64,000 nt of DNA from Terriglobales bacterium (GCA_049300475.1 JBAQJU010000335.1:10578-74577); one strand, 5' to 3'; counted from the stretch's first letter, positions 224 to 64,000 are shown. The notes: generated by a model from the letters alone, not told the origin. A program made the numbers and translations.

Positions 224-232
224 GAAACACCT

Positions 233-298
233 CGTCGTTCGTCGTTGGCTGTTCGTCGTTCGCTATTCGCGTCAAGCTCCTAGCTGTTAGTTCTTAGC
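233..298. repeat. Heptanucleotide-periodic spacer between ftsA and ftsZ
   Basis: The + strand in 7-nt register reads CGTCGTT CGTCGTT GGCTGTT CGTCGTT CGCTATT CGCGTCA AGCTCCT AGCTGTT AGTTCTT. The sense (-) strand shows TAA, TAA, TAG at 7-nt spacing, so all three frames are covered. The element ends 10 nt before the ftsZ ATG. Confidence 0.8.
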
Positions 299-5620: not shown

Positions 5621-5677
5621 TGGACAGCGATCCAACACAGAGGTAGCTATCGGATAGCGGCCGGGAAGAAAAACTCT

Positions 5678-5728
5678 TGTGGTGACGGGGCTCCGCCCCG
5701 TTCAGCGGGGCAAAGCCCCGCCACCACA
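5678..5728. repeat. 51-bp palindromic REP-like element, copy A
   Basis: TGTGGTGACGGGGCTCCGCCCCG ttcag CGGGGCAAAGCCCCGCCACCACA. It is about 90 percent identical, in reverse orientation, to 49206-49257. A half copy lies at 26496-26519. Confidence 0.8.
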
Positions 5729-5773
5729 CAAGTGGGCCCCCGACCGCCGTCCGTGGCTAGTGGAGGTTTCCCG

Positions 5774-12292: not shown

Positions 12293-14710
12293 CTAATTTC
12301 TCAGTGTCTTGCCGGTTTTGAGCGTGTACTGGATTCGCTCCTGTGTCTTCTTCTCGCCGCATAAGGACTTGAACGCCTCGCGCTCCAGATCGAGCACGTA
12401 CTGTTCGCTGACCGGCGTGCCGGGCGTGATATTTCCGCCGCAGAGGACCTCCGCGATCTTTGTGCCCAGCTTCAGCTCGTGATCGCTGATGTAGTCGCCC
12501 TGGCGCATCAGGTAGACGCCCATTTTGAGCGCGGCAAGAATGCTCTCCCCGGGCGCGGGAATGTCGGTGCGCATGACGGGAGGCTCATAGCCGGCGCGGA
12601 AGAGCTCCAGCGCGCGGGTTTTGGCATCGGAGAGCACTCGCTCGCGGTTCATGGTGATGCGATCGGAATTCCTCAGGAAGCCGAGACCGCGGGCTTCGTG
12701 GGCCGAAGTCGCAACTTTGGCAGTGGCGATCGTTTCAAAGGATTTTTTCATCGCCTCCAGGAGTTCGACGGATTCGCCCCGGCCGTCGGGACGAATGGAC
12801 GCTGCGCTATCGACGGCGCGCAACAACATCTCCTTGCAACCGCCGCCGCCCGGCAGCAGTCCGACGCCGACTTCGACGAGTCCCATGTAGAGCTCCGCGT
12901 GGGGCTGGCGTGCAGCGGCGTGCAGTGAGATCTCGCAACCACCGCCGAGAGCCAGTCCAAAGGGTGCGATCACGACCGGCTTGGGTGAGAATTTTACCGC
13001 TTGCGTCATGCCCTGGAACTGGCGGACGGCCATGTCTACGTCGTCCCATTCTTCTTCCTGCACCGACATCAGCAGCAGCATGAGGTTCGCGCCGACTGAG
13101 AAATTCTGGGCGTCGTTGGTGATCACGAAGGCGTCGAAGGCATCGCCCGCGCCGCCGGGTTTCAGAGTTTGCAGAATCAGCGAGATGATGTCGGCGCCGA
13201 GCGCGTTCATCTTGGAGTGAAACTCGATGCAGCCCACGCCATCGCCCAAATCCACGAGCGCGGCGCCGGAATTTTTTTTGACCACGCCGTTCGATTTCTT
13301 GGCGACCTGAACCGACCAGACACCGGCCGGAACAGTTACCGGTTGCCAGTTGCCGGTTGCCAGATCGGCAAACTTGCGGCCCGAGGCGGTCTTCGCATCG
13401 TCTTCATACCAGGATTTCTTGCCGCTACCTAACAACTTCTCGACGTTAGCGGCTACTGGATGGCCCTCCTTCTTCATGCGCGCGACGGTCGCTTCCACGC
13501 CGGCGGCGTCCCAGAGTTCGAAGGGTCCGAGTTCCCAGTTGAAGCCCATGCGCATGGCGCGATCGATCGCGACGACGGAGTCGGAAATCTCGGGAATGCG
13601 ATTTGCAGAATAGGTCCATAGATCAGCGAGGGCGGTCCACAGAAAGGTTGCGGCTTTGTCGGGCTTCTGGGGCGCGCCGTCGAGGCCGAGCAACATGCGG
13701 ACGCGGGCCCCGGTATCCTCGACATTTTTTGCCATATCGAGGGCGGCAAATTTGGGCTTCTGGCGCGGTTGGTATTCCAGGGTTTTCCAGTCCAACGCCA
13801 TGCGCTCGTCTTCTTTGCCTGCGGATTTCAGCTTCTTATAGAAGCCGCCTTTGGTTTTGTCGCCCAGCCATTTGCGTTCGAGCATCTGGCGGAAGAATGC
13901 GGGAATCTGCAATTCGCTGCGCTCATCGTGGACGTTCTGCGTCATGTTGCCGACGACGTGGCCCAGAATGTCGAGCCCCACCAGGTCAATGGTTCGGAAC
14001 GTGGCCGAGCGCGGCCAGCCCACGGTCTGCCCGGTGAGCGCGTCGATCTCTTCGATGCTCAGGTCCATTTCCTGCATCAGCCGCATTACGTTGAGCACCG
14101 AAAATGTTCCAATGCGATTGGCGATGAAGTTGGGCGTGTCCTTGGCGAACGCGACGCCCTTCCCGAGTTGCACATCGCAAAAGTGGGCGACAGCATCGAT
14201 GAGCGCGCGGTCGGCTTCTGGCGTTGGAATCAGTTCCAGCAGCCGCATATATCGGGGAGGATTAAAGAAATGCGTTCCGAACCAGGAGCGCCGGAAATCC
14301 TCGGAAAATCCCTCCGCGATTTTTGCCACGGGAAGGCCGCTGGTGTTGGTTGTGATGATTGTGCCCGGCGTGCGGAAGGCGTCCACCTTTTTCAGTAAAG
14401 CCCGCTTAATTTCGAGGTTCTCGACGACCGCCTCGATGATCCAGTCCACGTCGGCGAGCCGCTTCAGATCGTCGTCGAAATTGCCTACTGTCACCAGGCG
14501 CGCGAGCGACGGTTCGAAGAACGCCGCGGGTTTGGACTTCTTGGTGGCGTCGAGTCCGGCGGCGGAAATCTGGTTACGTGCCGGACCGTCGGCGTCGGGA
14601 GGAACGATATCCAGGAGCAGGGATGGCACTCCAGCGTTGGCGAAATGCGCGGCAATGCGGGCGCCCATGGTGCCGGCGCCAAGAATGGCAACTTTATTGA
14701 TTCGTTTCAT
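12293..14710 (-). CDS. Bifunctional 3-hydroxyacyl-CoA dehydrogenase / enoyl-CoA hydratase (FadN/FadB-like; dehydrogenase domain N-terminal)
   Basis: MKRINKVAILGAGTMGARIA is a Rossmann N-terminus and the C-terminal half is crotonase-like. The start is taken at ATG 14710 (GGAG upstream). The track start at 14737 is the alternative. Confidence 0.85.
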   Translation of the reverse strand: MKRINKVAILGAGTMGARIAAHFANAGVPSLLLDIVPPDADGPARNQISAAGLDATKKSKPAAFFEPSLARLVTVGNFDDDLKRLADVDWIIEAVVENLEIKRALLKKVDAFRTPGTIITTNTSGLPVAKIAEGFSEDFRRSWFGTHFFNPPRYMRLLELIPTPEADRALIDAVAHFCDVQLGKGVAFAKDTPNFIANRIGTFSVLNVMRLMQEMDLSIEEIDALTGQTVGWPRSATFRTIDLVGLDILGHVVGNMTQNVHDERSELQIPAFFRQMLERKWLGDKTKGGFYKKLKSAGKEDERMALDWKTLEYQPRQKPKFAALDMAKNVEDTGARVRMLLGLDGAPQKPDKAATFLWTALADLWTYSANRIPEISDSVVAIDRAMRMGFNWELGPFELWDAAGVEATVARMKKEGHPVAANVEKLLGSGKKSWYEDDAKTASGRKFADLATGNWQPVTVPAGVWSVQVAKKSNGVVKKNSGAALVDLGDGVGCIEFHSKMNALGADIISLILQTLKPGGAGDAFDAFVITNDAQNFSVGANLMLLLMSVQEEEWDDVDMAVRQFQGMTQAVKFSPKPVVIAPFGLALGGGCEISLHAAARQPHAELYMGLVEVGVGLLPGGGGCKEMLLRAVDSAASIRPDGRGESVELLEAMKKSFETIATAKVATSAHEARGLGFLRNSDRITMNRERVLSDAKTRALELFRAGYEPPVMRTDIPAPGESILAALKMGVYLMRQGDYISDHELKLGTKIAEVLCGGNITPGTPVSEQYVLDLEREAFKSLCGEKKTQERIQYTLKTGKTLRN

Positions 14711-14777
14711 AAGGGCTGACTCCGTAATCAGTGACATTAATCAGCGACGTCTACCAGGTTAGAAAATGGAAAATCTT

Positions 14778-26588: not shown

Positions 26589-26637
26589 TCTGACGGAATA
26601 AGTCTGTAGCCTGACGTAATCAGTCTGACGGAGCAAT
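26589..26637. repeat. Heptad-periodic stop-rich spacer upstream of ppiD
   Basis: TCTGACG GAATAAG TCTGTAG CCTGACG TAATCAG TCTGACG GAGCAAT. It ends 6 nt before ATG 26644. Confidence 0.7.
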
Positions 26638-28632: not shown

Positions 28633-28638
28633 GGCCTA

Positions 28639-28673
28639 GAGCCGACAACTGATAGCCGACAACTGAGAGCTGA
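28639..28673. repeat. 14-nt tandem, stop-rich spacer between ppiD and malQ
   Basis: AGCCGACAACTGAT AGCCGACAACTGAG AGCTGAG. It shares the word CAACTGAGA with the nuoL-nuoM spacer in sense orientation. Confidence 0.75.
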
Positions 28674-36807: not shown

Positions 36808-38144
36808 CGACGACGCCAGGTGGATTAGCGTTACGCGGGTCAACGGGGCACGGGTCAACGGGGCAGGGGTCATCGGGGCAAAGATCGATTTTACGGCGAT
36901 CAACTTTGCGTGGATTTTTGAGTTTGGTTGTCGCAAGCGGACTCGGATTGCTCGCCGCATGTGGCGGAGGTGGAAGCAGCAGCAAGAGCACCACCCCACC
37001 TCCTTCCGGAAATAACGTGCAAGCGATCGAAGTCAATGGAGGGCCGGTCGCGGGGCAACTCTACGCTAATGCCGCCTTTACCAGCGTGACCGTGTGCGTT
37101 CCGGGCTCCACGACCTGTCAGACGGTGGATGGAATCCTGGTGGACACGGGTTCGGTCGGACTAAGGCTCCTCGGTTCCGCAATCCCTAATCTTGCTCTGC
37201 CCAAGCTCTCTGGGTCGGGCAGCACGAACTACTACAACTGCGTCAGCTTTGTGGATGGCTCCTACCTTTGGGGACCTGTTGCGCAAGCGGATGTGGAGAT
37301 GGCCGGAGAAAAGGCAAGCAGCGCCAGCATTCAGGTGATCGAGGATCCCACTGGCTTCATGGTGCCGACCGCTTGCTCGAATGGCGGCATGGACGAAGAT
37401 AACCTCCAGGCGCTCGGAGCCAATGGCATTGTCGGCGTGGGCGGATACCCTCTGGATTGTGGCCCTGCCTGCGTGAGCGACACTTCTCCGGACATCTACT
37501 TTACCTGCGAGCAAAGCGGCAATTGTCAGTCATCGACGATCGCGGTAGCAAAGCAGGTGGTCAATCCGATCGTCGATTTTACGACCGACAATAATGGCGT
37601 ACTCATCGAAATGCAGTCGGTGGATGGCGAGTCGGCGACGGCCACCGGGTCCATGATCTTCGGCATCGGCACCGAATCCAACAACGCGCTGGGTTCAGCC
37701 AATGTCTATCCAATCAATAACGATGGGTTCTTCACAACGACGTTTAATTCGCAGGCGTTGACCGAGAGCTTTATTGACAGCGGCTCGAACGGATATTTTT
37801 TCCCGGATGCGTCGATTACGCAATGCAGCCAGAACAGCGGCGTCTTTGGGTTCTACTGTCCGGCCAACACCGCGAACCTGTCGGCACAAAATGTTACGCA
37901 AAGCGGGTCGCAAAATACGTTGAGTTTCAGCGTCGACAATGCGGTAAATGATTTTAATAACTTCGGCAGCGACTCAGCATTCGCGAATCTTGCAGGACCG
38001 AACGGCACCACTAACTGCGGAACGGGGACGCCTTGCGGCTTCGATTGGGGCCTTCCGTTCTTCTACGGCCGCAACGTGTTCACTTCGATCTACGGACAAT
38101 CGGCTCCGAGCGGAACTCCCGCCGCACCCTGGTGGGCCTATTAA
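36801..38144 (+). CDS. DUF3443-like lipoprotein with pepsin-like twin D[TS]GS motifs
   Basis: The lipobox is LGLLAAC|GGGGSSS. DTGS is at 37143-37154 and DSGS at 37776-37787, 211 aa apart. The start is either GTG 36801 (GGAGG upstream, 7-nt overlap with the previous gene) or TTG 36906, which gives a classical MRGFLSLVVASGLGLLAAC signal. Confidence 0.7.
   Translation: MVTTTPGGLALRGSTGHGSTGQGSSGQRSILRRSTLRGFLSLVVASGLGLLAACGGGGSSSKSTTPPPSGNNVQAIEVNGGPVAGQLYANAAFTSVTVCVPGSTTCQTVDGILVDTGSVGLRLLGSAIPNLALPKLSGSGSTNYYNCVSFVDGSYLWGPVAQADVEMAGEKASSASIQVIEDPTGFMVPTACSNGGMDEDNLQALGANGIVGVGGYPLDCGPACVSDTSPDIYFTCEQSGNCQSSTIAVAKQVVNPIVDFTTDNNGVLIEMQSVDGESATATGSMIFGIGTESNNALGSANVYPINNDGFFTTTFNSQALTESFIDSGSNGYFFPDASITQCSQNSGVFGFYCPANTANLSAQNVTQSGSQNTLSFSVDNAVNDFNNFGSDSAFANLAGPNGTTNCGTGTPCGFDWGLPFFYGRNVFTSIYGQSAPSGTPAAPWWAY
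36837..36881. repeat. 3 x 15-bp tandem repeat
   Basis: GGGTCAACGGGGCAC GGGTCAACGGGGCAG GGGTCATCGGGGCAA. It encodes GSTGH/GSTGQ/GSSGQ if the gene starts at 36801. Otherwise it is intergenic. Confidence 0.85.
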
Positions 38145-41750: not shown

Positions 41751-41780
41751 AGTCAGGGTTTAAATAGTCAGGGTTTAAAT
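41751..41780. repeat. Perfect 15-bp tandem duplication
   Basis: AGTCAGGGTTTAAAT x 2. It abuts the TTG start of the hydrolase ORF. Confidence 0.9.
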
Positions 41781-47374: not shown

Positions 47375-48406
47375 CTACCACGATCCCTTCTTGGTGTAGT
47401 ATCCCGCCCGGTTGTGGACCTGGTAAGAACCGCCAGCCGGTGGATTCGTCAGATTGACCTGAATCCGGCGAAACGGATAATCGGAGAAGCGCTGCGAGGG
47501 ATAATACGCCAACAGGTATTGGGTACGAAGTTCGTCGCTGATCTGGCGGAACGCGTCATCCAACTGGGGCAGCGAGGTGGCGTAGTAGTATTTGCCGCCG
47601 GTGTCTTCCGAAATCTGGATCAGGGCATGCTCGCCGCCCGTGTCGCGGCCCGCGCTCGCTTCAATCGGCACGATGATGATGCTGTAGATAATCGCTTCCG
47701 CTTCCTGGGCCGCGCGCAGCGCTTCTTTGTAGTTCACCTGGCTCACCGTGTCGCCGCCGTCGGTGATGATCACCATGACTTTTCTCCCCTGGCGGCGGCT
47801 CAACGCCTGCGATCCCAGGAAAATCGCATCGTAAAGTGCGGTTGCTGACCCGTTCCTGACACGGTCGATTCCGGCATCGATCTTCTTCAGGTCGGATGTG
47901 AACGGCACCACTTCGTTCACCTCCTCACTGAACTTGTAGAGCGACAACCCATCCTGTGGCCGCAAAATCGTGTGCGCGAACTTGCGCGCCGACTGTAACT
48001 CCAGCGGCAGGTCTTTGCGTGTGCTCAGGCTGGTATCCACCGAAAGCACAATCGAGAGCGGAAGCGCCGACTCCCGGCTGAAGAGGGCGATCTTCTGTGG
48101 TTTGCCGTCCTCCTTGAGCAGAAAATTTTCTTTTTCCAGATTGGAGATCGGCGCACCCCGCGCATCCGTCACCGTCACAAACACATTGACCAGCTTGACT
48201 TCGACCTTGAATGTGGTGTCCGGCTCTTGTGCGGACAATGATGCGCTTGGGCAGATCAGGAATACGCACACCAGCCAGAAAGCGAGCCGCGAGCCACGAG
48301 CCCCGAGTCGCGAGCAGACCGTATCAGATTTCGCTCGCCGCTCGTGGCTCGCGGCGCGAGGCTCTCTTGGGATGCGCTTCATTCGAACGACAATTTTCCG
48401 GGACAT
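47375..48406 (-). CDS. VWA-domain protein of the VWFA-related acidobacterial type
   Basis: FKVEVKLVNVFVTVTDARGAPISNLEKENFLLKEDGKPQKIALF, followed by VWA motifs (LSIVLSVDTSLS). The start is uncertain because a heptad hairpin occupies codons 14-42. GTG 48271 is the alternative. Confidence 0.75.
   Translation of the reverse strand: MSRKIVVRMKRIPREPRAASHERRAKSDTVCSRLGARGSRLAFWLVCVFLICPSASLSAQEPDTTFKVEVKLVNVFVTVTDARGAPISNLEKENFLLKEDGKPQKIALFSRESALPLSIVLSVDTSLSTRKDLPLELQSARKFAHTILRPQDGLSLYKFSEEVNEVVPFTSDLKKIDAGIDRVRNGSATALYDAIFLGSQALSRRQGRKVMVIITDGGDTVSQVNYKEALRAAQEAEAIIYSIIIVPIEASAGRDTGGEHALIQISEDTGGKYYYATSLPQLDDAFRQISDELRTQYLLAYYPSQRFSDYPFRRIQVNLTNPPAGGSYQVHNRAGYYTKKGSW
48282..48366. repeat. Heptad-periodic palindromic element within the annotated 5' end of the VWA ORF
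   Basis: GCGAGCC GCGAGCC ACGAGCC CCGAGTC GCGAGCA (15-nt loop) CGCTCGC CGCTCGT GGCTCGC GGCGCGA GGCTCTC. Confidence 0.8.
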
Positions 48407-49205: not shown

Positions 49206-49257
49206 TGTGGTGGCGAGGCTTTGCCCCGCCCAGACGGGGCGAAGCCCCGTCACCACA
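49206..49257. repeat. 52-bp palindromic REP-like element, copy B
   Basis: TGTGGTGGCGAGGCTTTGCCCCG cccaga CGGGGCGAAGCCCCGTCACCACA. It is an inverted copy of 5678-5728. Confidence 0.8.
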
Positions 49258-49404
49258 CCGACGAATTCCTGGACTCTGCCCACTTAGTGTAGCGCGCCGC
49301 CATCCGACCGGGCATGTCCCGCCGGTGTCACGGCCCGCGACTTCAGCCATTTAGTTCAATTACCACCGTAATCGTGCATTAGGTCACGTTCCAGCATAGG
49401 CTGG

Positions 49405-52653: not shown

Positions 52654-52740
52654 TTGCTTTCTCCTTTATGAATTGCCGCCAGTGGGTGGTTGACGCCGTG
52701 CCGTTACAGGCCGGCGCCCTCACGCTGAGGGCAGTTGTCA

Positions 52741-52818
52741 GCTTTCAGCTTTCAGTTCTCCGCGATTCACGCCACGTTAAAAACTGAGAGCTGACGGCTG
52801 AGAGCTGATAGCTCTGAT
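52741..52818. repeat. Heptad-periodic spacer between atpB and atpE
   Basis: GCTTTCA GCTTTCA ... CTGAGAG CTGACGG CTGAGAG CTGATAG CTCTGAT. The words are the same as in the nuoK-nuoL spacer. Confidence 0.8.
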
Positions 52819-53579: not shown

Positions 53580-53586
53580 AGAAGAA

Positions 53587-53676
53587 GCTGCGAGCTACGA
53601 GCCGCGAGCCGCGAGCAAATCGATCTCCGAGTTACGAGCAATGCCGATTCGAGCCCGCAGCTCGAAACTCGCGGCC
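53587..53676. repeat. Heptad-periodic spacer between atpI and atpB
   Basis: GCTGCGA GCTACGA GCCGCGA GCCGCGA ... TCGAGCC CGCAGCT CGAAACT CGCGGCC (complementary words). Confidence 0.8.
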
Positions 53677-55242: not shown

Positions 55243-56763
55243 CTACCTCACCATCGCCGACACGTGCGGCGAGGCGATTCCCAGCGACCAGTTTACGGTA
55301 CGGATGAAGGGCTCCGGGAAGACTCCGATCACAATCGTCATTAGTCCGGTCAGGCCGAGAGCGAAGCGCATTGCGATACTGACCGGCATGCGCGCGGGTT
55401 CGCCCTCGGGCGCTGGGCGGATCAGCATGGCGTTGGCGATCCGCAGATAGTAATAGAGCCCAAACAAGGCGTAGAGCACAGCCGCCGAAGCGAGCCAGTA
55501 GTGCCCGCTTTCAATCAGGCTGAGGAAGATGTAGTACTTGCCCAGAAAGCCTGCCGTGGGCGGAATGCCGGCCAGCGACAGCAGAAACATCAGCATAAGC
55601 ACGGCTTCGACAGGCGCGCGCGAATAGAGTCCAGCCATGTCGTCGAGTTCGTCGCCGATCACGTTGCGGTGCCGCAGCGACGTGATCACGGCAAACGCAC
55701 CCAGGTTCATGAAGGTGTAAACCATGAGGTAGATCAGGATGCCCTTGAAGCCGTCGGCAAACGCTGGACTACCAAATGGCGATGTTCCCATGGCGACGAA
55801 GGCGAGCAGCATGTAGCCCACGTGCGCAATCGAAGAATAGGCCAGCAGTCGCTTCGTATTGGTCTGGGTGAGGGCCGCGAGATTGCCGCCGGTCATGGTG
55901 GCGATCGCAACGAATACCATGATGGGGGTGTAAAGGGAGCGCAGCGGGATCAGTCCATAAATCAGAATGCGCAGCAATAAGGCCCACGCGGCCGCCTTCA
56001 CCGCGACCGACATGAAGCCGGTTACGCAGGTGGGCGCGCCTTCATAGGCGTCGGGCGCCCACTGATGGAAGGGAACCGCGGCGATCTTGAAGAGCAGTCC
56101 AACCGTGACCGTGAGCAGCGCAATCACCATAATCGGATTATGGGGATCCTGTGCCGACACGCGCGCCACGGCACGCTGAATATCTCCCAGGTTCGTGCTT
56201 CCCGAGATCCCGTACAGAAGTGAAAGACCATAGGCGAAGATGCCGGACGAAAACGCTCCCAGCAGCAGATACTTCAAGGCGGCTTCGTTGGAGCGGCGGT
56301 CGCGGCGCAGGAAGCCGACCAGCACATAAATCGAGATCGCCATCAGTTCCAGGCCGATGAAAAGCAGCACGATGTCGATGCCCGCGGCCATGCACATCAT
56401 GCCCACCACCGACATCAGCAGCAGCGCATAGTACTCGCCATGGTGTTCGTTTTCGATTTCCAGATAGCGCACGGAGGCGAGAATCGTGATTGCCGCCGAC
56501 GCCAGAAACAGGTACCAGAAGTACATTGCAAAGCGGTCGACGAGCAGGGAGTGATAGAACCCAATGTTCCCGCGCGGCATTGTGTACTGGATTCGCCAAA
56601 CACAAAAAGTCGCCAGCAGGACGCCGAGAAACGCGCCGACTGCATTCAGCCACTTCCACTGGCGCGGGATCATCAGGTCAATCAGCAGAATGCCGAGCGC
56701 AAAAATGGTCAGCTCCACCATCGGCAGCATCAACTGGTATTCGATGGGAGTGATCGCTGTCAC
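55243..56763 (-). CDS. nuoN: NADH-quinone oxidoreductase subunit N
   Basis: 506 aa, a polytopic antiporter-like subunit. The GTG start abuts the nuoM stop. Confidence 0.9.
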   Translation of the reverse strand: MTAITPIEYQLMLPMVELTIFALGILLIDLMIPRQWKWLNAVGAFLGVLLATFCVWRIQYTMPRGNIGFYHSLLVDRFAMYFWYLFLASAAITILASVRYLEIENEHHGEYYALLLMSVVGMMCMAAGIDIVLLFIGLELMAISIYVLVGFLRRDRRSNEAALKYLLLGAFSSGIFAYGLSLLYGISGSTNLGDIQRAVARVSAQDPHNPIMVIALLTVTVGLLFKIAAVPFHQWAPDAYEGAPTCVTGFMSVAVKAAAWALLLRILIYGLIPLRSLYTPIMVFVAIATMTGGNLAALTQTNTKRLLAYSSIAHVGYMLLAFVAMGTSPFGSPAFADGFKGILIYLMVYTFMNLGAFAVITSLRHRNVIGDELDDMAGLYSRAPVEAVLMLMFLLSLAGIPPTAGFLGKYYIFLSLIESGHYWLASAAVLYALFGLYYYLRIANAMLIRPAPEGEPARMPVSIAMRFALGLTGLMTIVIGVFPEPFIRTVNWSLGIASPHVSAMVR

Positions 56764-58380
56764 TTAGTCGCTCGCTTTCGCTGGCGCGACCGCTGGCGTA
56801 ACGGGCGCGCCCGCCGGCATCGCTTGCGCGTTTACAGGCGTGTTCGGATTGTTGGCCTGGATGTTCTGGACAATCTGTTTCACCGGCGTTTCGAGGATCT
56901 GAAAAAATGGCTTCGGATAGAGACCGATCCAGAACGCCATGATGATGAGCGGGGCAAAAGTAAGCATTTCGCGCGGCGTCAAATCGTGCAGCTTTTCATT
57001 CTTCGGATTCGTAACCGTGCCGAAGAAAACGCGCTGGTAGAGCCATAGCAGGTAGGCCGCAGCCAGGATTACTCCGGGCGCCGCCCAGGCCGCCCACTTC
57101 CAGTTCGCGGTGAAGGCTCCCTGCAGGATGGTGAACTCGCCGACGAAACCGTTCAGCAGCGGGAGGCCCATTGACGAGAGGAACATGATCATCGTAATGG
57201 TTGCGTACACCGGCATCACGTTCGAAATGCCGCCATATTCCGAGATTTCGCGCGTGTGCCGCCGCTCGTAGAGGATGCCGACGATCAAGAAGAGCGCGCC
57301 CGTCGAGATGCCGTGGTTGATCTGCTGCAGTACCGAGCCGCTGAGGCCGGCCTGGTTGAGCGCGAAAATGCCGAGCGTGCAAAAGCCGAGGTGGCTCACC
57401 GAGGAATACGCCACCAGCTTCTTCATATCTTTCTGCATCAGCGAAACGAGCGCCCCGTAGACGATGCCGACGATGGAGAGGCCGATCATCCAGCCGCGCA
57501 CGGTCGCGCCCAGGAAGGTCGAGGTCGTGTTGGTGATGACCTGCGGGAAAAACGGCAGTGAGAAGCGCACGAAGCCGTACGTCCCCATCTTCAGCAGAAC
57601 GCCCGCCAGAATCACGGAGCCGGCGGTGGGAGCTTCGACGTGCGCATCCGGCAGCCAGGTGTGGAACGGGAACATTGGAACTTTTATGGCGAAGCCAAGG
57701 AAGAACGCCAGGAACAGCCAGATGGCGGCGTGGAATGGAATGAGTGGCGCCGTCTTGTAAAGTTCGGGAATGCTGAAGGTGAAGACGTTCGTCAGCGTGT
57801 GATGATGGAAATAGAGAAACAGGATGCCGAGGAGCATCAGCACGGAGCCGAGCAGCGTGTACAGGAAGAACTTGATGGCGGCGTAAAGTTTGCGCGGGCC
57901 GCCCCAGATGCCGATCAGCAGGTACATGGGAACGAGCATCGCTTCCCAGAAGACGAAGAACAGGAAGAAGTCGAGCGCCATGAAGACGCCGAGCATGCCG
58001 GTCTGCAGCAGGAGGAACCAGACGTAGTATTCCTTGACGCGGTTCTCGATGGCGGTCCAGGAGGAGAGGATGGAGATCCAACCGAGCAGCGTGGTGAGCA
58101 TGATCAGCAGGAATGAAATGCCGTCGATGCCGAGGTTGTAACCTGCGCCGATCGAGGGAATCCAGTTGTTGGCCGTGCCTTCGAGAAACTTGAACTGCTG
58201 CGGGTCGAAGCGCTGCGCCCAGAACATCGGCACGAGCGGTATCGAAATCAGGAATCCGCCCAGCGAGAAGATGTTCGCAATCCAACGGATCGCGTCCTTG
58301 TTGTCCTTGGGAACGAACAGGAGAACAAGCGCGCCGATCAGCGGCGTGAAGAGGATGATGGATAAGATGTGATTCTGCAT
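56764..58380 (-). CDS. nuoM: NADH-quinone oxidoreductase subunit M
   Basis: 538 aa. NuoM-type motifs are present (GIDGISFLLIMLT, WLPDAHVEAPTAGSVILAGVLLKMG). Confidence 0.9.
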   Translation of the reverse strand: MQNHILSIILFTPLIGALVLLFVPKDNKDAIRWIANIFSLGGFLISIPLVPMFWAQRFDPQQFKFLEGTANNWIPSIGAGYNLGIDGISFLLIMLTTLLGWISILSSWTAIENRVKEYYVWFLLLQTGMLGVFMALDFFLFFVFWEAMLVPMYLLIGIWGGPRKLYAAIKFFLYTLLGSVLMLLGILFLYFHHHTLTNVFTFSIPELYKTAPLIPFHAAIWLFLAFFLGFAIKVPMFPFHTWLPDAHVEAPTAGSVILAGVLLKMGTYGFVRFSLPFFPQVITNTTSTFLGATVRGWMIGLSIVGIVYGALVSLMQKDMKKLVAYSSVSHLGFCTLGIFALNQAGLSGSVLQQINHGISTGALFLIVGILYERRHTREISEYGGISNVMPVYATITMIMFLSSMGLPLLNGFVGEFTILQGAFTANWKWAAWAAPGVILAAAYLLWLYQRVFFGTVTNPKNEKLHDLTPREMLTFAPLIIMAFWIGLYPKPFFQILETPVKQIVQNIQANNPNTPVNAQAMPAGAPVTPAVAPAKASD

Positions 58381-58387
58381 AAGAACA

Positions 58388-58415
58388 GTTCTCAGTTGCC
58401 GGTTCTCAGTTGCCA
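58388..58415. repeat. 2 x 14-nt tandem spacer between nuoL and nuoM
   Basis: GTTCTCAGTTGCCG GTTCTCAGTTGCCA. The sense strand reads GGCAACTGAGAAC x 2. It ends 8 nt before the nuoM start. Confidence 0.8.
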
Positions 58416-58443
58416 GTGGCTACGAGCCGGAAGCATTCCGGAC

Positions 58444-60645
58444 TCACGCCACTACAAAGCGCCTGACCAATAGGTAAACAAGGGCTCCCGCTGCTAAAAC
58501 TCCAAGCGAGATCCACAACCAAAGCATGAATCCGAACAAATAACACAAGACTCCTACCAGACCCGCCATCATCACCAGGGCATACCACTGTACCAAGCCC
58601 CATTCAAATAGCCGCGTGGGATATGACAACATTCGGGCGAGGATCGCCGGGCCATTTACGCCGACGCCGTCGATGATCCACTTATCCCACCACGATGAGA
58701 CCGTGGCGACCGCGCGCGTGACCCAGCCAGCGTCGTTCACGACGCCGTCGATGACCTTCGAATCGAACCATGACGATGCTTCGCCCAAGCCCAGCACGCC
58801 GAGACGCACGTCGCCTAGTTTGCGGCGTCCGGTGAAAATATAGTCGTAGCCCTCATCCACGAACCACTTGTTGTAGAGAGCCTTGTAGAGCGGCGGAGCA
58901 CTGACGGCGATCGGTTCTGGATAATCCTTGCCGGCACGCGCATAGGCGCGCCAGGAGAGGCCGAGGCCCACGACCGCGGCGCCGACGGATAAAGTCATCA
59001 GGAGGTACTCCATCGGGTCGGTGTGTTCTTCTTCTTTCTTGCCGGCCGCCAATTGCCCAGGTTCTTCCGCTCGCATCATGTGGGCTTCGCGCGCGAATAC
59101 GGGACTCAGAAATGCCTCGAACCGGTCCGAACCTCCCAGGCTGCGCGGAAGGCCCAGCCATCCGGCTACCACCGAGCAAATCGCCAGGATGACGAGCGGC
59201 ACGGTCATCGACTTGGGCGACTCGTGCACGTGATGCTCAACCTCATGGCTCATGCGCGGCTTGCCGAAGAAGGTAAGGAAGATCAGACGGCCCATGTAAA
59301 ACGCCGTCATCAGCGCGGTTGCGAAGCCGATAAACCACAGGATGTGATAGGCGTCGGGTTCGGAGGTCCACGTCTGCCAGAGGATTTCGTCCTTGGAGAA
59401 AAATCCCGCGAATCCCGGAATGCCGGCGATGGCCAGCGTCGCGACGAGCATCGTTTTATAGGTGGTGGGAATGCGGCTGCGCAGATCGCCCATGTTGCGC
59501 ATGTCCTGCTCGCCGGACATGGCGTGGATCACCGAGCCGGAGCCGAGGAAGAGGAGAGCCTTGAAGAACGCGTGCGTGAACACGTGGAAGACGCCCGCCG
59601 CGAATGCGCCGACACCGAGCGCTAGGAACATGTATCCGAGTTGAGAAACGGTCGAATAAGCGAGCACTCGCTTGATATCGTTCTGCACCAGTCCGATTGA
59701 GGCAGCGAATATGGCCGTCAGCGCGCCCACAATCGCTACCGTCTTCATCGCCGTCGGAGCCAAGACAAAAACCGCGTTCGAGCGAGCCACCATGTAGACG
59801 CCCGCGGTCACCATGGTTGCGGCGTGGATCAAGGCGGAAACCGGCGTCGGACCTTCCATCGCATCGGGAAGCCAGACATAGAGTGGAAGCTGCGCCGACT
59901 TGCCGCAGGCTCCGACGAATAAGAGAAGAGCTGCGGCGGTCAGGATCGGGTCGCCGATCTCGAAGCGCCCGCTGCGCGCCAGAGTGTTGATGTCGATGAA
60001 GCGGAACGATCCCAGATACCACACCAGGGTGAGTGCGCCCAGAATGAAGCCGGCGTCGCCGATGCGGTTCACAATAAACGCCTTGTTCGCGGCGTCACTC
60101 GCCGACTTGCGGTGGAAATAGAAACCGATCAGCAAGTACGAGCACAGGCCCACGCCCTCCCAGCCGACGAACATGAGGATGTAATTGTTCGCGAGGATGA
60201 GCGTGAGCATGGCGAACATGAACAGATTCAGGTATCCGAAGAATCTGTAATAGCCCCCCTCGTGCGCCATGTAGCCGACGGAGTAAATGTGAATCAGCAT
60301 GCCCACGCCAGTGACGAAGAGCAGCCAGATGCAGGAGAGCGGGTCGAGGAGGAAGCCGGCGTCGACGTTGAAGGCGGCGGGCGTGCCGTCTTTCTTGACG
60401 AATGTGAGGCCGCCATCGCCGGATCCCAGCCAGGTGTAGACAATCTTTTCGAAAGGATGGCCGGAGCCGTGCGAGAGATGTGTGTAATCGAGAACGGTGA
60501 AGCAGGCAAACAGGAATGCAATGACGACCGCTCCAACGCAGACCGCGCTTACGGTCGATTTCTGGAGCTTTCGGCCAAAGAAGAACATCATCGCGGCGCC
60601 GAAGGCCGGGAAGAGCGGGATTAGGTAGATGTGGTTAAGGAACAT
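58444..60645 (-). CDS. nuoL: NADH-quinone oxidoreductase subunit L, enlarged (733 aa)
   Basis: The NuoL core is present (WLPDAMEGPTPVSALIHAATMVTAGVY). The C-terminal third is long, with a charged insert, an extended amphipathic segment and an extra terminal TM helix. Confidence 0.9.
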   Translation of the reverse strand: MFLNHIYLIPLFPAFGAAMMFFFGRKLQKSTVSAVCVGAVVIAFLFACFTVLDYTHLSHGSGHPFEKIVYTWLGSGDGGLTFVKKDGTPAAFNVDAGFLLDPLSCIWLLFVTGVGMLIHIYSVGYMAHEGGYYRFFGYLNLFMFAMLTLILANNYILMFVGWEGVGLCSYLLIGFYFHRKSASDAANKAFIVNRIGDAGFILGALTLVWYLGSFRFIDINTLARSGRFEIGDPILTAAALLLFVGACGKSAQLPLYVWLPDAMEGPTPVSALIHAATMVTAGVYMVARSNAVFVLAPTAMKTVAIVGALTAIFAASIGLVQNDIKRVLAYSTVSQLGYMFLALGVGAFAAGVFHVFTHAFFKALLFLGSGSVIHAMSGEQDMRNMGDLRSRIPTTYKTMLVATLAIAGIPGFAGFFSKDEILWQTWTSEPDAYHILWFIGFATALMTAFYMGRLIFLTFFGKPRMSHEVEHHVHESPKSMTVPLVILAICSVVAGWLGLPRSLGGSDRFEAFLSPVFAREAHMMRAEEPGQLAAGKKEEEHTDPMEYLLMTLSVGAAVVGLGLSWRAYARAGKDYPEPIAVSAPPLYKALYNKWFVDEGYDYIFTGRRKLGDVRLGVLGLGEASSWFDSKVIDGVVNDAGWVTRAVATVSSWWDKWIIDGVGVNGPAILARMLSYPTRLFEWGLVQWYALVMMAGLVGVLCYLFGFMLWLWISLGVLAAGALVYLLVRRFVVA

Positions 60646-60730
60646 TCAGCTATCAGCTCTCAGTCATCAGCTTTCAGTTGCGTGCTCTCAGCTCTTACTG
60701 ACGGCTGAGAGCTGAGGGCTGAAAGCTGCC
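60646..60730. repeat. Heptad-periodic palindromic spacer between nuoK and nuoL (best example)
   Basis: TCAGCTA TCAGCTC TCAGTCA TCAGCTT TCAGTTG CGTGCTC TCAGCTC tta CTGACGG CTGAGAG CTGAGGG CTGAAAG CTGCC. Confidence 0.85.
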
Positions 60731-60733
60731 TTT

Positions 60734-61042
60734 CTACCACTTCAACAAATCAATCTCGTCCACATTGATCGTCTCCCGGTTACGGAAGAAGGCGATCAGG
60801 ATGCCCAGGCCGACCGCGGCTTCGGCGGCGGCATCGACCACGATGAAGATCGCAAAGAGCTGCCCATGCAGGTTTCCCCACATGCGCGAGAACGCGACCA
60901 GGTTCAGGTTCACGGCGTTCAATATCAGCTCGATCGACATCAATACGATTACCACGTTGCGACGCGTGAGTACGCCGATCGTACCCAGCACGAAAAGTGC
61001 GGCCGCGACAACCAGATAATGCAATGTAGTGATCGGAACCAT
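60734..61042 (-). CDS. nuoK: NADH-quinone oxidoreductase subunit K
   Basis: From ATG 61042 the product is 102 aa with three TM helices: [46 protein letters not shown]... The longer track ORF runs through the spacer. Confidence 0.9.
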
Positions 61043-61058
61043 AAAAATCGTCAAAAAC

Positions 61059-61134
61059 CGTCGTTCGTCCTTCGTTATTCGCCAATCTGCTCCCGTTACG
61101 GTTTTGCGAACAGCGAACGACAAATAGCGAACGA
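61059..61134. repeat. Heptad-periodic palindromic spacer between nuoJ and nuoK
   Basis: CGTCGTT CGTCCTT CGTTATT CGCC ... CGAACAG CGAACGA CAAATAG CGAACGA. The same words occur in the ftsA-ftsZ spacer. Confidence 0.8.
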
Positions 61135-61686
61135 CTAGATTTTCCTCTTCGTCATAATTACCGCCCCCAAGATCGCCACCAGCAACAGCAAGGAGGCGAT
61201 TTCGAAGGTAAATGTGTACTGGCCCATCCTGCCCGCTTCTCCGTAAAGCATGGCGGCGACCTGCTGCGTGTTGGTTGCTTCCGGCAACTGCACCATGCGA
61301 TCCGGAAGCAGCGCTCTGCCCTTGGAGAACGCACCTAGGAACAAAGCCAGCAAGGCGCACGATGCCACCAGCCCTACCGGCCAGATGCGGTTAAACTGGC
61401 GCTCTTTCGAGGAGCGCTCGATATTCACCAGCATGATCACAAACAGAAACAGCACCATGATGCCGCCGGCGTACACGATGATCTGCACGCCAGCGACAAA
61501 CGGGGCATAGAGCATGAGGTACAGTCCCGCCACCGAGAGCAGCGTAACGATCAGCGCCAGCGCGGAATGTACTGCGTTGCGGCGCGTGATCACCAGCAAG
61601 CCGCTGATAATCGCAGCTGCCGCGAGGCCGTAAAAGAAATATGGCGTTCCGACCGGGGCCGCGCCCACGTTCATTGCCGGGTTCAT
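61135..61686 (-). CDS. nuoJ: NADH-quinone oxidoreductase subunit J
   Basis: ATG 61686 overlaps the nuoH stop (ATGA). The 183-aa membrane protein contains [15 protein letters not shown]. Confidence 0.85.
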
Positions 61687-62975
61687 GAGACCAGCACCCC
61701 CACGATGGCGGTCAGAATCAGCACGCCCAGCGAGATTGGCAGCATGACCTTCCATCCCACCTTCATCAGCTGGTCAAAGCGATAACGCGGCCAGGTCGCG
61801 CGGTACCAGATGAACAGGTACATGAAAATGGCCACCTTCAGCATGAACCAGTAAACGTAATCGATGCCCTCACGGGTATGCGCGGCGAGGCTGGTATCGG
61901 CATTGCGCCCGGCAATCGCGATCACAAACAAAACCAGCGCGATGAAGGCCAGCAGCAGCGCGAAGACGCCGAGGCCGATGCGCTGAATCTTGAAGAACGA
62001 ATGCGACGGCATGCGCGCGGTGCCGATGAAGGCAAACATCGCCAGGGCGGCAAACGTCAGGCCGGGGAAGAGCGAGAAGATAAACTCCCACACCGGGGCA
62101 TTGAGCAGGTTTGGGAAGGGACGCATCCATCCCCCCAGCCACAGCGTGACGGCAATCGCCGAGACCGCAATCATGGCTGCATATTCGGCAAGCATGAAGA
62201 GCGACCAGCGCAGGCCGCTGTACTCGGTATGAAATCCAGCGGTCAGTTCGGATTCGGCTTCCGCGAGATCGAACGGCGAGCGATTCGTTTCGGCGACCAT
62301 GGCGATGGCGAAGATTACGAAGGCGATGAAGCCCAGCGGAAAGAACTTGAAGAGGAACCAGATGCCCTGCTGCTGCTGCGCCTCGACAATTCCGATCATG
62401 CTCAGCGTACCTGTGCCGGTGGAGTTCAGGCTGGTCATCAAGATTGCCGACACGACCGCGAGGCCCATGGCTACCTCGTAGGAGACCATCTGCGCACTCG
62501 AGCGCAGCGCGCCAATCAGCGGATAGTGCGAGTTGGAGGCCCAGCCCGCGGTGACGATACCCAGCACTCCGAGCGACGACACTCCCAGCATAAAGAGGAT
62601 GCCGATGTTCATGTCGCTGACCGCCTGCGACGGGCCGAACGGAATTACGGTGTAAACGGTGAAGGACGCGAGCAGGCCGATAAGCGGCGCTACCCAGAAG
62701 ACCGTCTTGTCCGATTCCGCCGGAATGATGTCTTCTTTCAGCATCAGCTTGAGCGCGTCAGCGAAGGGCTGCAGCAGGCCGTGCGGGCCGACACGCATCG
62801 GGCCCAGGCGAATCTGGAAGTGGGCGAGCGCCTTGCGCTCCAGCCAGTTCATGGCCATCACCGTGATCGACACGCCCGCAAAAATAATCAGCACATAGAT
62901 CAGCGCCCAGAGCTGATTGCCCGCCTGCCCGGGCGTTACCGGGCTGCCCAGATACGACGTGAGGGAGTGCAGCAT
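61683..62975 (-). CDS. nuoH: NADH-quinone oxidoreductase subunit H, enlarged (430 aa)
   Basis: ATG 62975 overlaps the nuoD stop (ATGA). NuoH motifs are present (RKALAHFQIRLGPMRVGPHGLLQPFADALKL; ETNRSPFDLAEAESEL; WPRYRFDQLM). An insert with two extra hydrophobic helices lies before the last conserved block. Confidence 0.9.
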   Translation of the reverse strand: MLHSLTSYLGSPVTPGQAGNQLWALIYVLIIFAGVSITVMAMNWLERKALAHFQIRLGPMRVGPHGLLQPFADALKLMLKEDIIPAESDKTVFWVAPLIGLLASFTVYTVIPFGPSQAVSDMNIGILFMLGVSSLGVLGIVTAGWASNSHYPLIGALRSSAQMVSYEVAMGLAVVSAILMTSLNSTGTGTLSMIGIVEAQQQQGIWFLFKFFPLGFIAFVIFAIAMVAETNRSPFDLAEAESELTAGFHTEYSGLRWSLFMLAEYAAMIAVSAIAVTLWLGGWMRPFPNLLNAPVWEFIFSLFPGLTFAALAMFAFIGTARMPSHSFFKIQRIGLGVFALLLAFIALVLFVIAIAGRNADTSLAAHTREGIDYVYWFMLKVAIFMYLFIWYRATWPRYRFDQLMKVGWKVMLPISLGVLILTAIVGVLVS

Positions 62976-64000
62976 CAGCGGTCCACCTCGCCGAGCACGA
63001 TGTCGAGCGTGCCGATTACAGCGACCACATCGGCGACCAGCATCCCACGCACCATTACATCGAGAGCTTGCAGATTCACAAACGAGGGGGGACGCACGCG
63101 CAACCGGTAGGGCTGGGTCGAGCCGTCGCTGACGATGAAGTATCCCAACTCGCCCTTGGGAGCTTCGATTGAGTGATAGATTTCGCCCACCGCAGGCTTG
63201 ATCACCTTGGGCACCTTGGCCATGATCGGGCCCTCGGGAATGCCGTTTACGGCTTGCTCGATGATGCGTAGCGACTGCCGCATCTCCACCATGCGCACCA
63301 AATACCGGTCGTAGGTGTCGCCATTCTCTCCGATCGGGATTTCGAAGTCGAAGTCGGCATAGTTGGCGTAGGGGATTGCTTTGCGAATGTCCCACTTCAC
63401 GCCACTGGCACGCAGGACCGGACCGGTGACGCCGAGCGCAATCGCGTCCGCGGCTGAAATCGTGCCGACGTTCTTGGTGCGCTCCAGCCAGATGCGATTG
63501 GTGGTCAGCAGAGCTTCATACTCGTCGATCTTGGGCGCGACAAACTTCAGGAAATTCTTTACTTCTTTTTCGAAGCCAGCATAGGTCTCGTAAAGGCAGC
63601 CGCCGATGCGGAAAGCGTGAGTTGTGAGACGCGCTCCGCAATACTTTTCGAAAATCTTAAGAATCTCTTCCCGGTCGCGAAAGGTGTAGAAGAGCGGCGT
63701 CATGGCTCCGATATCGAGCGCGTGCGTTCCCAGCCAGAGCTGGTGGCTGGCAATGCGGTTCAACTCGGTGAGGATGACGCGAATGTAATTGGCGCGCGGC
63801 GGGGCTTCGACGTTCAACAGCTTTTCTACTGCCTGGCAATAGCCGAGGCCGTTCGAGACCGCGGCGACGTAATCCATGCGATCGACGTAGGGATTGAACA
63901 TCGTGTAGGTGCGGTTCTCGGCGATCTTTTCGACTCCGCGATGCAGGTAGCCGATTACGCACTCGGTGCCTAAAACCTTTTCGCCATCAAGCTTCAGGAT
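62975..64000 (-). CDS. nuoD: NADH-quinone oxidoreductase subunit D (C-terminal ~340 codons; gene continues past the window end)
   Basis: The frame stays open upstream of the track Met and reads ...[34 protein letters not shown]... The C-terminus is ...[14 protein letters not shown]. Confidence 0.9.

Follow-up and report, generated by a model that had tools for sequence, protein, structure and literature searches.

We analysed a 64-kb stretch of DNA (58.7% G+C; hereafter the window) from an uncultured acidobacterium of the order Terriglobales, in which the spacers between nuoJ, nuoK, nuoL and nuoM are built from tandem 7-nt units (heptads). The nuo genes, like the atp, fts and VWA genes of the window, lie on the minus strand, and the plus-strand words reported in an initial annotation of this sequence are therefore antisense to the mRNA. 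In the nuoK-nuoL spacer, the 5' arm of the mRNA (60698-60728) is made of CUUUCAG, CCCUCAG, CUCUCAG and CCGUCAG units, and the 3' arm (60646-60695) of GCUGAGA-type units that reach the nuoL AUG. The two arms are predicted to pair in helices of about 5 bp split by single mismatches, and the periodicity was significant at both lag 7 and lag 14 (p<0.0005, shuffle test). The nuoJ-nuoK spacer has UCGUUCG-type units in its 5' arm, ACGAACG/GCGAAUA units in its 3' arm and a U-rich tail before the nuoK AUG, and for its degenerate arms the shuffle test gave significance at one of the two lags and a marginal value at the second. In the nuoL-nuoM spacer a 14-nt unit is present twice at 58388-58414, as the initial annotation had stated (GGCAACUGAGAACC in the mRNA sense; 100% match), and ends 7 nt before the nuoM AUG; the fold score of this spacer comes from an unrelated small stem. 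Coordinates are collected in Table 1, together with predicted minimum-free-energy folds.

Tandem Repeats Finder (TRF) called ten arms with a period of 7 or 14 nt in the window (232-269, 28638-28670, 48282-48315, 48333-48364, 52738-52755, 52784-52813, 53586-53616, 58388-58414, 60646-60695 and 60698-60728). Runs with at least 17 matches in 21 positions occurred five times at lag 7, whereas the remaining lags, multiples of 3 aside, gave none and dinucleotide shuffles of the window gave 0.0. In per-site shuffle tests, the arms at nuo, atp, VWA, ftsZ and malQ reached p<0.001 at lag 7 or lag 14 with few exceptions, the weakest being the degenerate nuoJ-nuoK arms and the second atpI-atpB arm (53640-53676; p ~0.008 and 0.016 at lags 7 and 14). 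Ten sites had been named initially, and period-7 arrays are present at eight of them; the ppiD leader carries a 14-nt period only (lag 14 p = 0.0005, lag 7 p = 0.28), and a period of 7 was unsupported at the fadB-like site at 14717-14744 (p = 0.09, best lag 13). One array that the annotation did not mention lies inside the fadB-like open reading frame (ORF) at 13333-13363 (lag-7 p<0.0005), where it encodes LATGNWQPVT, a linker between the 3HCDH and ECH (enoyl-CoA hydratase) domains, and shows that absorption of heptad arrays into coding sequence is possible. The window holds 9-10 heptad loci.

Palindromy between arms had been ascribed to the family as a whole. It is predicted at nuoK-nuoL, nuoJ-nuoK, atpI-atpB, atpB-atpE and the VWA gap, but nuoL-nuoM, ftsA-ftsZ and ppiD-malQ carry direct arrays only. 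The last two arrays are unstructured and have no partner arm, and a GAGGUG Shine-Dalgarno sequence lies between the ftsA-ftsZ array and the ftsZ AUG. The 3' arm at atpI-atpB reads GCUCGCG, GCUCGCG, GCUCGUA, GCUCGCA and ends 9 nt before the atpB AUG, and the atpB-atpE hairpin begins directly after the atpB stop codon. Pfam matches support the flanking genes (FtsA/FtsZ, the 3HCDH+ECH fadB-like protein, the PpiD-like rotamase, MalQ and AtpI/AtpB/AtpE), and place a MoaD-MoaE fusion gene next to the gene for the VWA protein.

Searching the whole window against Rfam 15 at the gathering threshold gave no match. Scanning 47-64 kb for intrinsic terminators flagged no full heptad hairpin; two short partial stems were returned at atpB-atpE (52724-52749 and 52801-52815), on the plus strand and hence antisense to the atp genes. 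The heptad hairpins do not qualify as intrinsic terminators; at atpB-atpE, the atp genes run on past the element within one operon. Promoter-like sites in 47-64 kb occurred at chance level.

Table 1. Heptad elements of the window and the nuo genes, with predicted folds (kcal/mol) and their z scores against shuffled sequence.
Feature	Position	Strand	Arrangement and remarks	TRF period	Fold	z
nuoJ	61135-61755	minus				
nuoJ-nuoK spacer, 92 nt	61043-61134	minus	degenerate heptad/14-mer hairpin		-32.3	-2.9
nuoK	60734-61042	minus				
nuoK-nuoL spacer, 88 nt	60646-60733	minus	stop-to-start hairpin	7	-40.9	-4.0
nuoL	58444-60645	minus				
nuoL-nuoM spacer	58381-58443	minus	direct array only, without complementary arm	14		-2.1
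nuoM	56764-58380	minus				
nuoN	55243-56763	minus				
atpI-atpB spacer	53586-53676	minus	hairpin, CGAGC-type words; flanked by Pfam ATP-synt_I and ATP-synt_A	7	-57	-4.6
atpB-atpE	52738-52813	minus	hairpin, UCAGCU/AGCUGA words	7 (both arms)		-2.6
MoaD-MoaE fusion/VWA gap	48282-48366	minus	hairpin, GCGAGCC/GGCUCGC words	7 and 14	-65.1	-3.7
ftsA-ftsZ	232-269	minus	direct array, ACGACGA/ACGAACA units (mRNA sense)	7 and 14		+0.6
ppiD-malQ	28638-28673	plus	direct array, GCCGACAACUGAKA x 2.4; Pfam Rotamase/SurA_N and Glyco_hydro_77	14		+1.5
ppiD leader	26589-26637	plus	CUGACGN every 14 nt; weak family relative	not among TRF calls		
fadB-like ORF	13333-13363	minus	heptad array inside the ORF, CAGTTGC/CGGTTGC words, 4.4 units	7 and 14		

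Other repeats were seen in the window. GC-rich palindromes resembling repetitive extragenic palindromic (REP) sequences form a shared family at 5660-5731 and 49220-49290 (GGTGACGGGGCTCCGCCCCGTTCAGCGGGGCAAAGCCCCGCCACCAC and a related copy), and have no relation to the heptad arrays. A separate repeat class, with a period of 15 nt, is present in tandem at 1785-1833 (3.3 copies), 36836-36880 (3.0) and 41751-41780 (2.0), the latter two being intergenic, and is the source of a lag-15 signal. The nuo cluster of the window (61683-64000), as well as that of the related locus L081 (400-8309), follows the order NuoC, NuoD, NuoH, NuoJ, NuoK, NuoL, NuoM, NuoN. A nuoI gene is missing between nuoH and nuoJ, the stop of the former overlapping the start of the latter, and nuoE/F/G are absent; the cluster is an atypical complex I-like operon.

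Distribution of heptad arrays among gaps and lineages

We collected 80 loci of 20 kb around nuoK homologues and scanned them together with the window (1.5 Mb), counting as an array any run of three or more units that had no more than two mismatches. All genome-wide figures given here rest on this 1.5 Mb, which is biased towards nuo, the relatives being metagenome assemblies around one operon; a NuoK homologue search for cultured relatives returned metagenome sequences only. Two public contigs match the window at 100% (L082, ENA ERZ25039528; L083, Logan SRR28041769). The closest GTDB species representatives, L001 ('uncultured Acidobacteriaceae bacterium MFD00008.bin.2.117') and L081, share ~90% DNA identity with the window and ~75% at third-codon positions, and close genome pairs are few in the set. 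Gene calls outside nuo were crude, and since our own calls missed nuoJ and placed some nuoL starts wrongly, start and stop distances in the nuo gaps were re-derived from gene ends anchored by tblastn.

The scan detected 253 arrays at lag 7 compared to 6 at lag 8. Most of the lag-7 arrays (228 of 253) were in non-coding DNA, where lag 6 gave 18 despite a laxer criterion. The initial annotation had proposed enrichment of period 7 in gaps over coding sequence as a test of its idea, and the enrichment was pronounced, with 1.18 arrays per kb of non-coding DNA against 0.019 per kb of coding DNA. Density was highest in the gaps of the nuo operon (2.65 per kb), followed by convergent gaps (1.21), other co-oriented gaps (0.73) and divergent gaps (0.25). 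The description of the elements as intercistronic needs widening: they are strongly enriched in transcribed gaps, but are also found in leaders, in convergent gaps and in one ORF. In one convergent gap, at the locus L007, an intrinsic terminator is enclosed by a heptad hairpin.

The period-7 signal is lineage-specific. Loci of the Terriglobales type (group A, 48 loci) carried 1.43 lag-7 arrays per kb of non-coding DNA, compared to 0.09 at lag 6 and 0.04 at lag 8, and five loci from other Terriglobia, with different words, carried 2.2 (group C). In the 28 Bryobacterales/Solibacter/Acidiferrales-like loci (group B) the density was at background level (0.12 per kb). The median nuoJ-nuoK, nuoK-nuoL and nuoL-nuoM gaps were 88, 99.5 and 94 nt in group A, with heptad arrays in nearly all, and 2, 7 and 4 nt in group B.

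Start codons, Shine-Dalgarno motifs and predicted hairpins

A Shine-Dalgarno-like motif, scored as GGAG, GAGG or AAGGA at -20 to -4 of the start codon, was present in just 1 of 78 array-bearing gaps, compared to 22 of 27 compact nuoJ-nuoK gaps and 9 of 16 compact nuoK-nuoL gaps. Heptad arrays thus replace the usual Shine-Dalgarno motif at the nuo junctions. Overall usage of the motif by clade, estimated from crude start calls, was 25% vs 33%, a comparison that carries little information. The arrays end close to the next start codon, as the initial annotation had noted, the median distance in relatives being 5-7 nt.

Two forms could be distinguished among 174 arrays. A partner in the same gap, pairing at -20 kcal/mol or better, was found for 111, and 29 had no partner. 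The partnerless arrays lay at a median distance of 5 nt from the start codon and were strongly oriented: on the sense strand, A outnumbered T in 25 of them against 4 (20 against 1 within 15 nt of a start). Their initiation regions were less structured than composition-matched shuffles (z = +0.77, p = 0.008). In the paired form, a U-rich reverse-complement array lies right after the upstream stop and an A-rich array runs up to the next start. When nuo gaps bearing arrays were folded with 40 nt of coding sequence on either side, a helix spanning the gap was predicted in 87%, compared to 46% of shuffles, beginning ~0.5 nt past the stop and ending ~6 nt before the start. The predicted stems are 25-35 bp long (-30 to -65 kcal/mol) and consist of runs of ~5 bp with single mismatches at the variable heptad positions; this length and energy would be compatible with a putative intercistronic processing hairpin for RNase III. 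Neither a correlation between the lengths of the two arms nor a longer 3' arm was significant.

A short U-rich tract was noticed between the last heptad and the AUG (CUGUUCUU-AUG, CUGCUUUU-AUG and GAUUUUU-AUG), at the nuoM and nuoK starts of the window (58381-58388 and 61043-61060) and at many other loci, and it is kept where the heptad words differ. At nuoJ-nuoK it trails the stem like the tail of a terminator, and some nuoJ-nuoK and nuoL-nuoM spacers end U-rich. In eight nuoK-nuoL gaps (L014, L019, L026, L027, L033, L035, L038 and L046), the loop between the heptad arms contains inserts that resemble REP sequences or miniature inverted-repeat transposable elements, for example GTCATCCTGAGCGAAGCGAAGGACC... 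and GATAGGGGTCCTTCGACTCCGG...CGCTCAGGATGACA; the inserts extend these gaps to 150-717 nt, and the arms persist.

Heptad words and stop triplets

The words vary by genome and locus, and include GCUAGAA, GCUAAUU, CUGACAA, CUGAGAA, CGACGAA, GCUAAGA, GCUCGNA, GCUCACA and UCGAAAC; units of the form AACUGAS are frequent. A loose core, A-R-C-U-R-N-N, is common to the 83 distinct cyclic words, and its information content (4.0 bits) exceeds that of letter-permuted words (3.0 +/- 0.1 bits), indicating that word content is non-random. The core positions are the least variable within arrays.

The spacers had been described as saturated with stop triplets. This applies to CTGA/CTAG-type words, but words of the CGAGCC, CGTTCG/CGAACGA and CAGTTGC types are free of stops. 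Among 196 arrays, 59% of words carried a stop triplet in the sense strand (35-40% expected), rising to 68% in start-proximal arrays, and all three frames were closed in 34% of arrays. In public gene calls, NuoK is given as 123-135 aa instead of 102 (P0001, P0002, P0008 and others; loci L091-L105), because the gene caller extends the ORF upstream through the stop-free nuoJ-nuoK spacer. The overlong NuoK is a systematic annotation artefact of heptad spacers.

Evolution of the spacers

Covariation between arms in relatives had been a second test proposed at the outset, and it was observed. In gaps with two detected arrays, the words were reverse complements at six or more of seven positions in 13 of 22 cases, compared to 10% of between-genome pairings. 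Arrays paired better with the rest of their own gap (-27.3 kcal/mol) than with the gaps of other genomes (-17.8 kcal/mol), the own gap being better in 48 of 60 comparisons (p = 7e-8). The arms therefore covary at the level of the word while the words turn over between genomes. A hairpin acting at the level of RNA, as suggested initially, is a reasonable reading because of this covariation together with the enrichment of period 7 in transcribed gaps.

We compared the three genomes that are ~90% identical (the window, L001 and L081), and found each spacer to be either nearly unchanged or wholly replaced. Between the window and L081, the nuoK-nuoL spacer showed no substitution in 74 aligned nt, with indels of -14 and +6 nt, at a third-codon identity of 75%. 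Between the window and L001, 87 of 92 nt of the nuoJ-nuoK spacer were identical, compared to 75-83% of third-codon positions; of the substitutions, two fall at unpaired positions, two keep pairing and one breaks a pair. Spacers that were wholly replaced are nuoK-nuoL in L001, nuoJ-nuoK in L081 and nuoL-nuoM in the window.

Closer pairs differed by unit-sized changes. The nuoK-nuoL hairpins of L099 and L100 (98.95% identity in nuoL) are one heptad apart in either arm, and between L084 and L090 (99%) one arm changes in length by 28 nt and another by 14 nt. Between L100 and L103, the nuoK-nuoL spacers were identical at 98 of 99 positions (third positions, 87%), and in nuoL-nuoM the arms were conserved and the loop had diverged. 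Spacers of one strain were identical in eight samples. Spacer length therefore shifts by slippage of whole units, point substitutions are rarer than synonymous ones, and wholesale replacement occurs occasionally.

A 26-nt array (AAGCTGCGAGCTACGAGCCGCGAGC...) was identical at all 26 positions between atpI-atpB of the window (53584-53609) and the 5' arm of nuoK-nuoL in L001 (10311-10336), which are non-orthologous junctions. This could reflect either copying between loci or chance within one word family. We considered whether the arrays are mobile elements and did not adopt this reading: the 26/26 match is suggestive, but arrays of the same family may match by chance, and neither terminal repeats nor target duplications were seen. 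In L085, a run of N marking an assembly gap (~2960-3000) falls exactly in the nuoJ-nuoK heptad spacer, and heptad arrays appear to break short-read assemblies.

Discussion

The heptad spacers are heptanucleotide simple-sequence repeats (SSRs), and belong to the broad class that includes the short tandemly repeated repetitive (STRR) sequences, the TAACTGA repeats and the 'long SSRs'. The initial annotation knew of no described element class with these properties, but intergenic heptamers are documented that abut start codons without a Shine-Dalgarno sequence, close every frame with stops and in some cases form inverted pairs (PMC4679880, PMC4692102, PMC2700814, PMC2408588). For the Terriglobales arrays, the data establish the period and where it occurs, the orientation to the downstream gene, the missing Shine-Dalgarno motifs, the geometry of the predicted hairpins, the covariation of their arms, the unit-sized indels and the constraint on sequence.

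Our leading explanation, which we hold tentatively, is that arrays made by slippage may have been kept as leaders that lack a Shine-Dalgarno sequence, with a masking arm that may gate translation of the downstream gene. Strand slippage would make the arrays and resize them in units of 7 nt. In Terriglobales these would have colonised transcribed intergenic spacers and would act on the mRNA; we infer transcription through the spacers, and each functional step that follows is put forward on the same footing. The basic module is an A-rich, T-poor array with the loose core A-R-C-U-R-N-N, unable to pair with itself and placed a few nt before a start without a Shine-Dalgarno sequence, where it may offer ribosomes an unstructured site at which to initiate independently of such a sequence. 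A reverse-complement array directly follows the stop in most operon-internal gaps and is predicted to pair with this module into a 25-35 bp hairpin with periodic mismatches, whose base would bring the upstream stop and the next start together. The complementary arm would then mask the leader, and downstream translation would require that the base of the stem be opened by a ribosome terminating on the upstream cistron, in a form of structure-mediated translational coupling. Since the stem base lies at the stop and start codons, a terminating ribosome would melt exactly the part that frees the downstream start. Alternatively, or in addition, cleavage of the stem by a double-strand-specific RNase may free the leader, for which the heptamer-arm hairpin of the H. 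influenzae hmw leader sets a precedent (PMC12721329).

Several observations weigh against this explanation. The variable heptad positions stay mismatched and show no covariation. In a test based on G-U pairs, the sense fold was better in 73 gaps against 51 (p = 0.018), with no bias for nuoK-nuoL, and given so weak a bias the stems would be expected just as readily on the opposite strand or in single-stranded DNA. No fixed phase links the heptad register to the AUG. Convergent gaps carry arrays too, as does coding sequence of the window in one case, and some hairpins are far from the next start, as at atpB-atpE, where atpE has its own AAAGGAG Shine-Dalgarno sequence ~84 nt downstream of the hairpin. 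Wholesale replacement of spacers between genomes that are 90% identical fits a function that is weak or easily substituted. Finally, the compact ancestral junction already couples translation, which makes the benefit of an expansion less evident.

A rival view takes the arrays as functionally neutral or selfish products of a 7-nt replication slippage particular to the lineage. They would build up at any place that can bear a frameshifting repeat, template switching would produce the palindromes, and the adjacency to stops and starts would follow from gap filling. Polymerase slippage has been proposed for the dominance of heptamers (Mrazek 2007, as cited in PMC4679880 and PMC4692102), and unit-sized indels between near-identical strains, the swapping of whole spacers at 90% genome identity, the patchy distribution among clades, the near lack of asymmetry between sense and antisense folds, the absence of a phase relative to the AUG, and the arrays in convergent gaps and in one ORF are all in keeping with it. 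Slippage without constraint is nevertheless disfavoured because of the 20:1 sense orientation of partnerless arrays near starts and the conservation of retained spacers above the level of third-codon positions. It also leaves unexplained why word content is non-random, why array density in divergent gaps is tenfold below that in nuo gaps, why Shine-Dalgarno motifs are lost exactly at array sites, why arm complementarity outlasts word turnover, and why one strain pair shows a balanced change of one unit in both arms. On this evidence we regard a purely neutral origin as possible but doubtful. Constructive neutral evolution is one possibility, in which slippage-prone inserts would be tolerated best if self-complementary, thereby looping themselves out.

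The hairpins may instead serve intercistronic mRNA processing or stability, in the manner of REP sequences or the RNase III sites of phage T7, setting the half-lives of mRNA segments, with repeats being only the route by which stems evolve. The length and energy of the predicted stems, their occurrence in transcribed co-oriented and convergent gaps and rarity in divergent ones (as for REPs), the atpB-atpE hairpin at the 3' end of atpB and far from the atpE start, and the L007 hairpin around an intrinsic terminator are consistent with such a role, and a hairpin with a heptamer arm in H. influenzae is a proven RNase III substrate (PMC12721329). This would account neither for the partnerless arrays, with their strict orientation and adjacency to starts, nor for the loss of Shine-Dalgarno motifs, and as the subunits of complex I are needed equally, differential stability within nuoJ-K-L-M would have no obvious purpose. 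We therefore consider it unlikely that the hairpins are processing or stability elements.

A broader conjecture, which we regard as distinctly unlikely, is that the arrays might be the cis-element of a sequence-flexible system for Shine-Dalgarno-independent initiation and coupling, in which a dedicated factor or a feature of the ribosome would read an A-R-C-U-R core once per heptad, gating would be built in through the complementary arm, and the system would be shared with the STRR, TAACTGA, Bacteroidetes and Geobacter repeats. If true, this would be a widespread alternative to the Shine-Dalgarno interaction that evolves by slippage.

The arrays could also be periodic sites for an RNA- or single-strand-binding protein (a cold-shock-domain protein, an S1-type OB-fold or an unknown oligomer) that would recognise one core every 7 nt, with the complementary arm as a competitor. 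A core common to 83 words above the permutation control, the low variability of its positions within arrays, and a conservation of spacer sequence beyond that needed for pairing alone point in this direction, as do ACUGA-type words in Beggiatoaceae, cyanobacteria, Bacteroidetes and Geobacter (PMC4679880, PMC2408588, PMC2700814) and the proposal by MacGregor of S1, Csp or CsrA as binders (PMC4679880). The words are nonetheless very diverse (GCUAAUU, CGACGAA, GCUCACA, UUCAUCC), the core holds as little as ~4 bits, spacing to the AUG is not fixed and no candidate protein was identified, making a dedicated binding protein quite improbable. Frame-independent insulation, in which a stop triplet in the word would be displayed in all frames (7 being coprime with 3) and halt read-through or out-of-frame ribosomes, had been proposed initially and agrees with the enrichment of stop words and with the all-frame stops noted for TAACTGA repeats (PMC4679880), but it cannot be the general function because ~40% of words (41%) carry no stop triplet. 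It is highly improbable as an explanation, in that just 34% of arrays close all three frames, stop-free families (CGAGCC, CGACGAA, GCUCGNA) have the same architecture at atpI-atpB, VWA, nuoJ-nuoK and ftsZ, and public gene callers read straight through such spacers.

Masked leaders for Shine-Dalgarno-independent translation thus remain our preferred, if tentative, explanation. Heptanucleotide repeats, recognised since 1990, dominate the long SSRs of many bacterial genomes and are functionally unexplained outside single contingency loci such as hmw. Terriglobales offers a clean comparative system for them, since nuoJ-K, K-L and L-M carry the elements across the order and sister lineages provide a compact, Shine-Dalgarno-bearing ancestral control state. 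With word turnover under arm complementarity, strict orientation, unit indels and constraint in hand, the purpose of heptamer repeats becomes directly testable. A practical consequence is that gene callers extend ORFs through stop-free spacers, as for NuoK.

Comparison with known systems

The closest parallel is provided by the TAACTGA repeats of marine Beggiatoaceae, some Cyanobacteria and Bacteroidetes (MacGregor 2015, PMC4679880), which lie in forward orientation just upstream of starts, usually without a ribosome-binding site, and present stops in three frames. The arrays described here are likewise tandem 7-nt units, mostly intergenic, that end in sense orientation a few nt before starts lacking a Shine-Dalgarno sequence; sets are sometimes split by related heptamers, and TAACTGA itself fits the A-R-C-U-R-N-N core. 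The two differ in that one word dominates the TAACTGA sets, with one indirect repeat among 170 sets (PMC4679880), whereas in this family, from the phylum Acidobacteriota, dozens of words replace one another from genome to genome, and roughly two thirds of the arrays can form a stop-to-start hairpin with a reverse-complement partner.

Heptamers are over-represented among long SSRs in many bacteria, for which polymerase slippage has been proposed (Mrazek 2007, as cited in PMC4679880 and PMC4692102), and include the cyanobacterial STRR heptamers (Mazel 1990, as cited in the same papers). The GGGAATC and GGGGAYT heptamers of Xanthomonas and Nostoc vary in length at the same locus between relatives and occur occasionally as inverted pairs (PMC4692102). 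Elements of the forms MTYCTGA x 5 and GGACCGG x 4 are present in Geobacter metallireducens (PMC2700814), and dispersed TTGTCAG and ATTGCGA repeats are found in Nostoc (PMC2408588). The Terriglobales arrays resemble these in the over-representation of period 7, in being intergenic and dispersed over tens to hundreds of loci, in combining a conserved core with variable positions, in varying in length and sequence at the same locus between close relatives, and in occasional inverted pairs able to form stem-loops. Some Nostoc words recur here, namely TTGTCAG (the reverse complement of CTGACAA), ATTGCGA and GCGAATT (PMC2408588). STRR sequences in the strict sense (STRR1-3) belong to heterocystous cyanobacteria, whereas the host here is an acidobacterium and the words differ; the words are also not quadruplex-prone, unlike those of G-rich heptamer families. 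Systematic stop-to-start hairpins, replacement of the Shine-Dalgarno motif and an order-wide position with word turnover are not described in the long-SSR surveys. Our literature search, which left most subscription journals outside its reach, found nothing on heptanucleotide repeats in Acidobacteria, nor any description of a systematic two-array stop-start hairpin, of order-wide positional conservation with word turnover or of purifying selection on such repeats.

A functional precedent exists in H. influenzae hmw1A, where a transcribed (ATCTTTC)n repeat forms one arm of a hairpin in the 5' untranslated region that is processed by RNase III and controls expression (PMC12721329). In both systems a heptanucleotide SSR is an arm of a long hairpin and copy number changes by slippage. 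The partner in hmw1A is a non-repeat G-rich segment at a single adhesin contingency locus, unlike the Terriglobales elements, in which both arms are heptad arrays and which occupy many housekeeping operon junctions.

REP sequences and the bacterial interspersed mosaic elements (BIMEs) or REPINs that they form in proteobacteria are palindromes of 20-40 nt with one conserved sequence, mobilised by REP-associated tyrosine transposases (RAYT, IS200/IS605-like); they are rare in promoter regions and able to stabilise upstream mRNA. The heptad elements share with them a dispersed occurrence as intergenic palindromes in transcribed co-oriented and convergent gaps, but are not REP, BIME or REPIN units: the single 7-mer is not a palindrome, palindromy arises only when one array is set against another, and the words change with locus and genome.

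At the E. coli atpHA junction and at the coat-replicase junction of phage MS2, a stem hides the downstream initiation region and is opened by the ribosome that translates or terminates upstream. The base of the predicted heptad stems lies 0-3 nt past the stop and 5-6 nt short of the next start, a geometry that would fit this mechanism. The atpHA and MS2 stems are of unique sequence and lie partly within coding regions, whereas the Terriglobales elements consist of repeat arrays confined to an expanded spacer.

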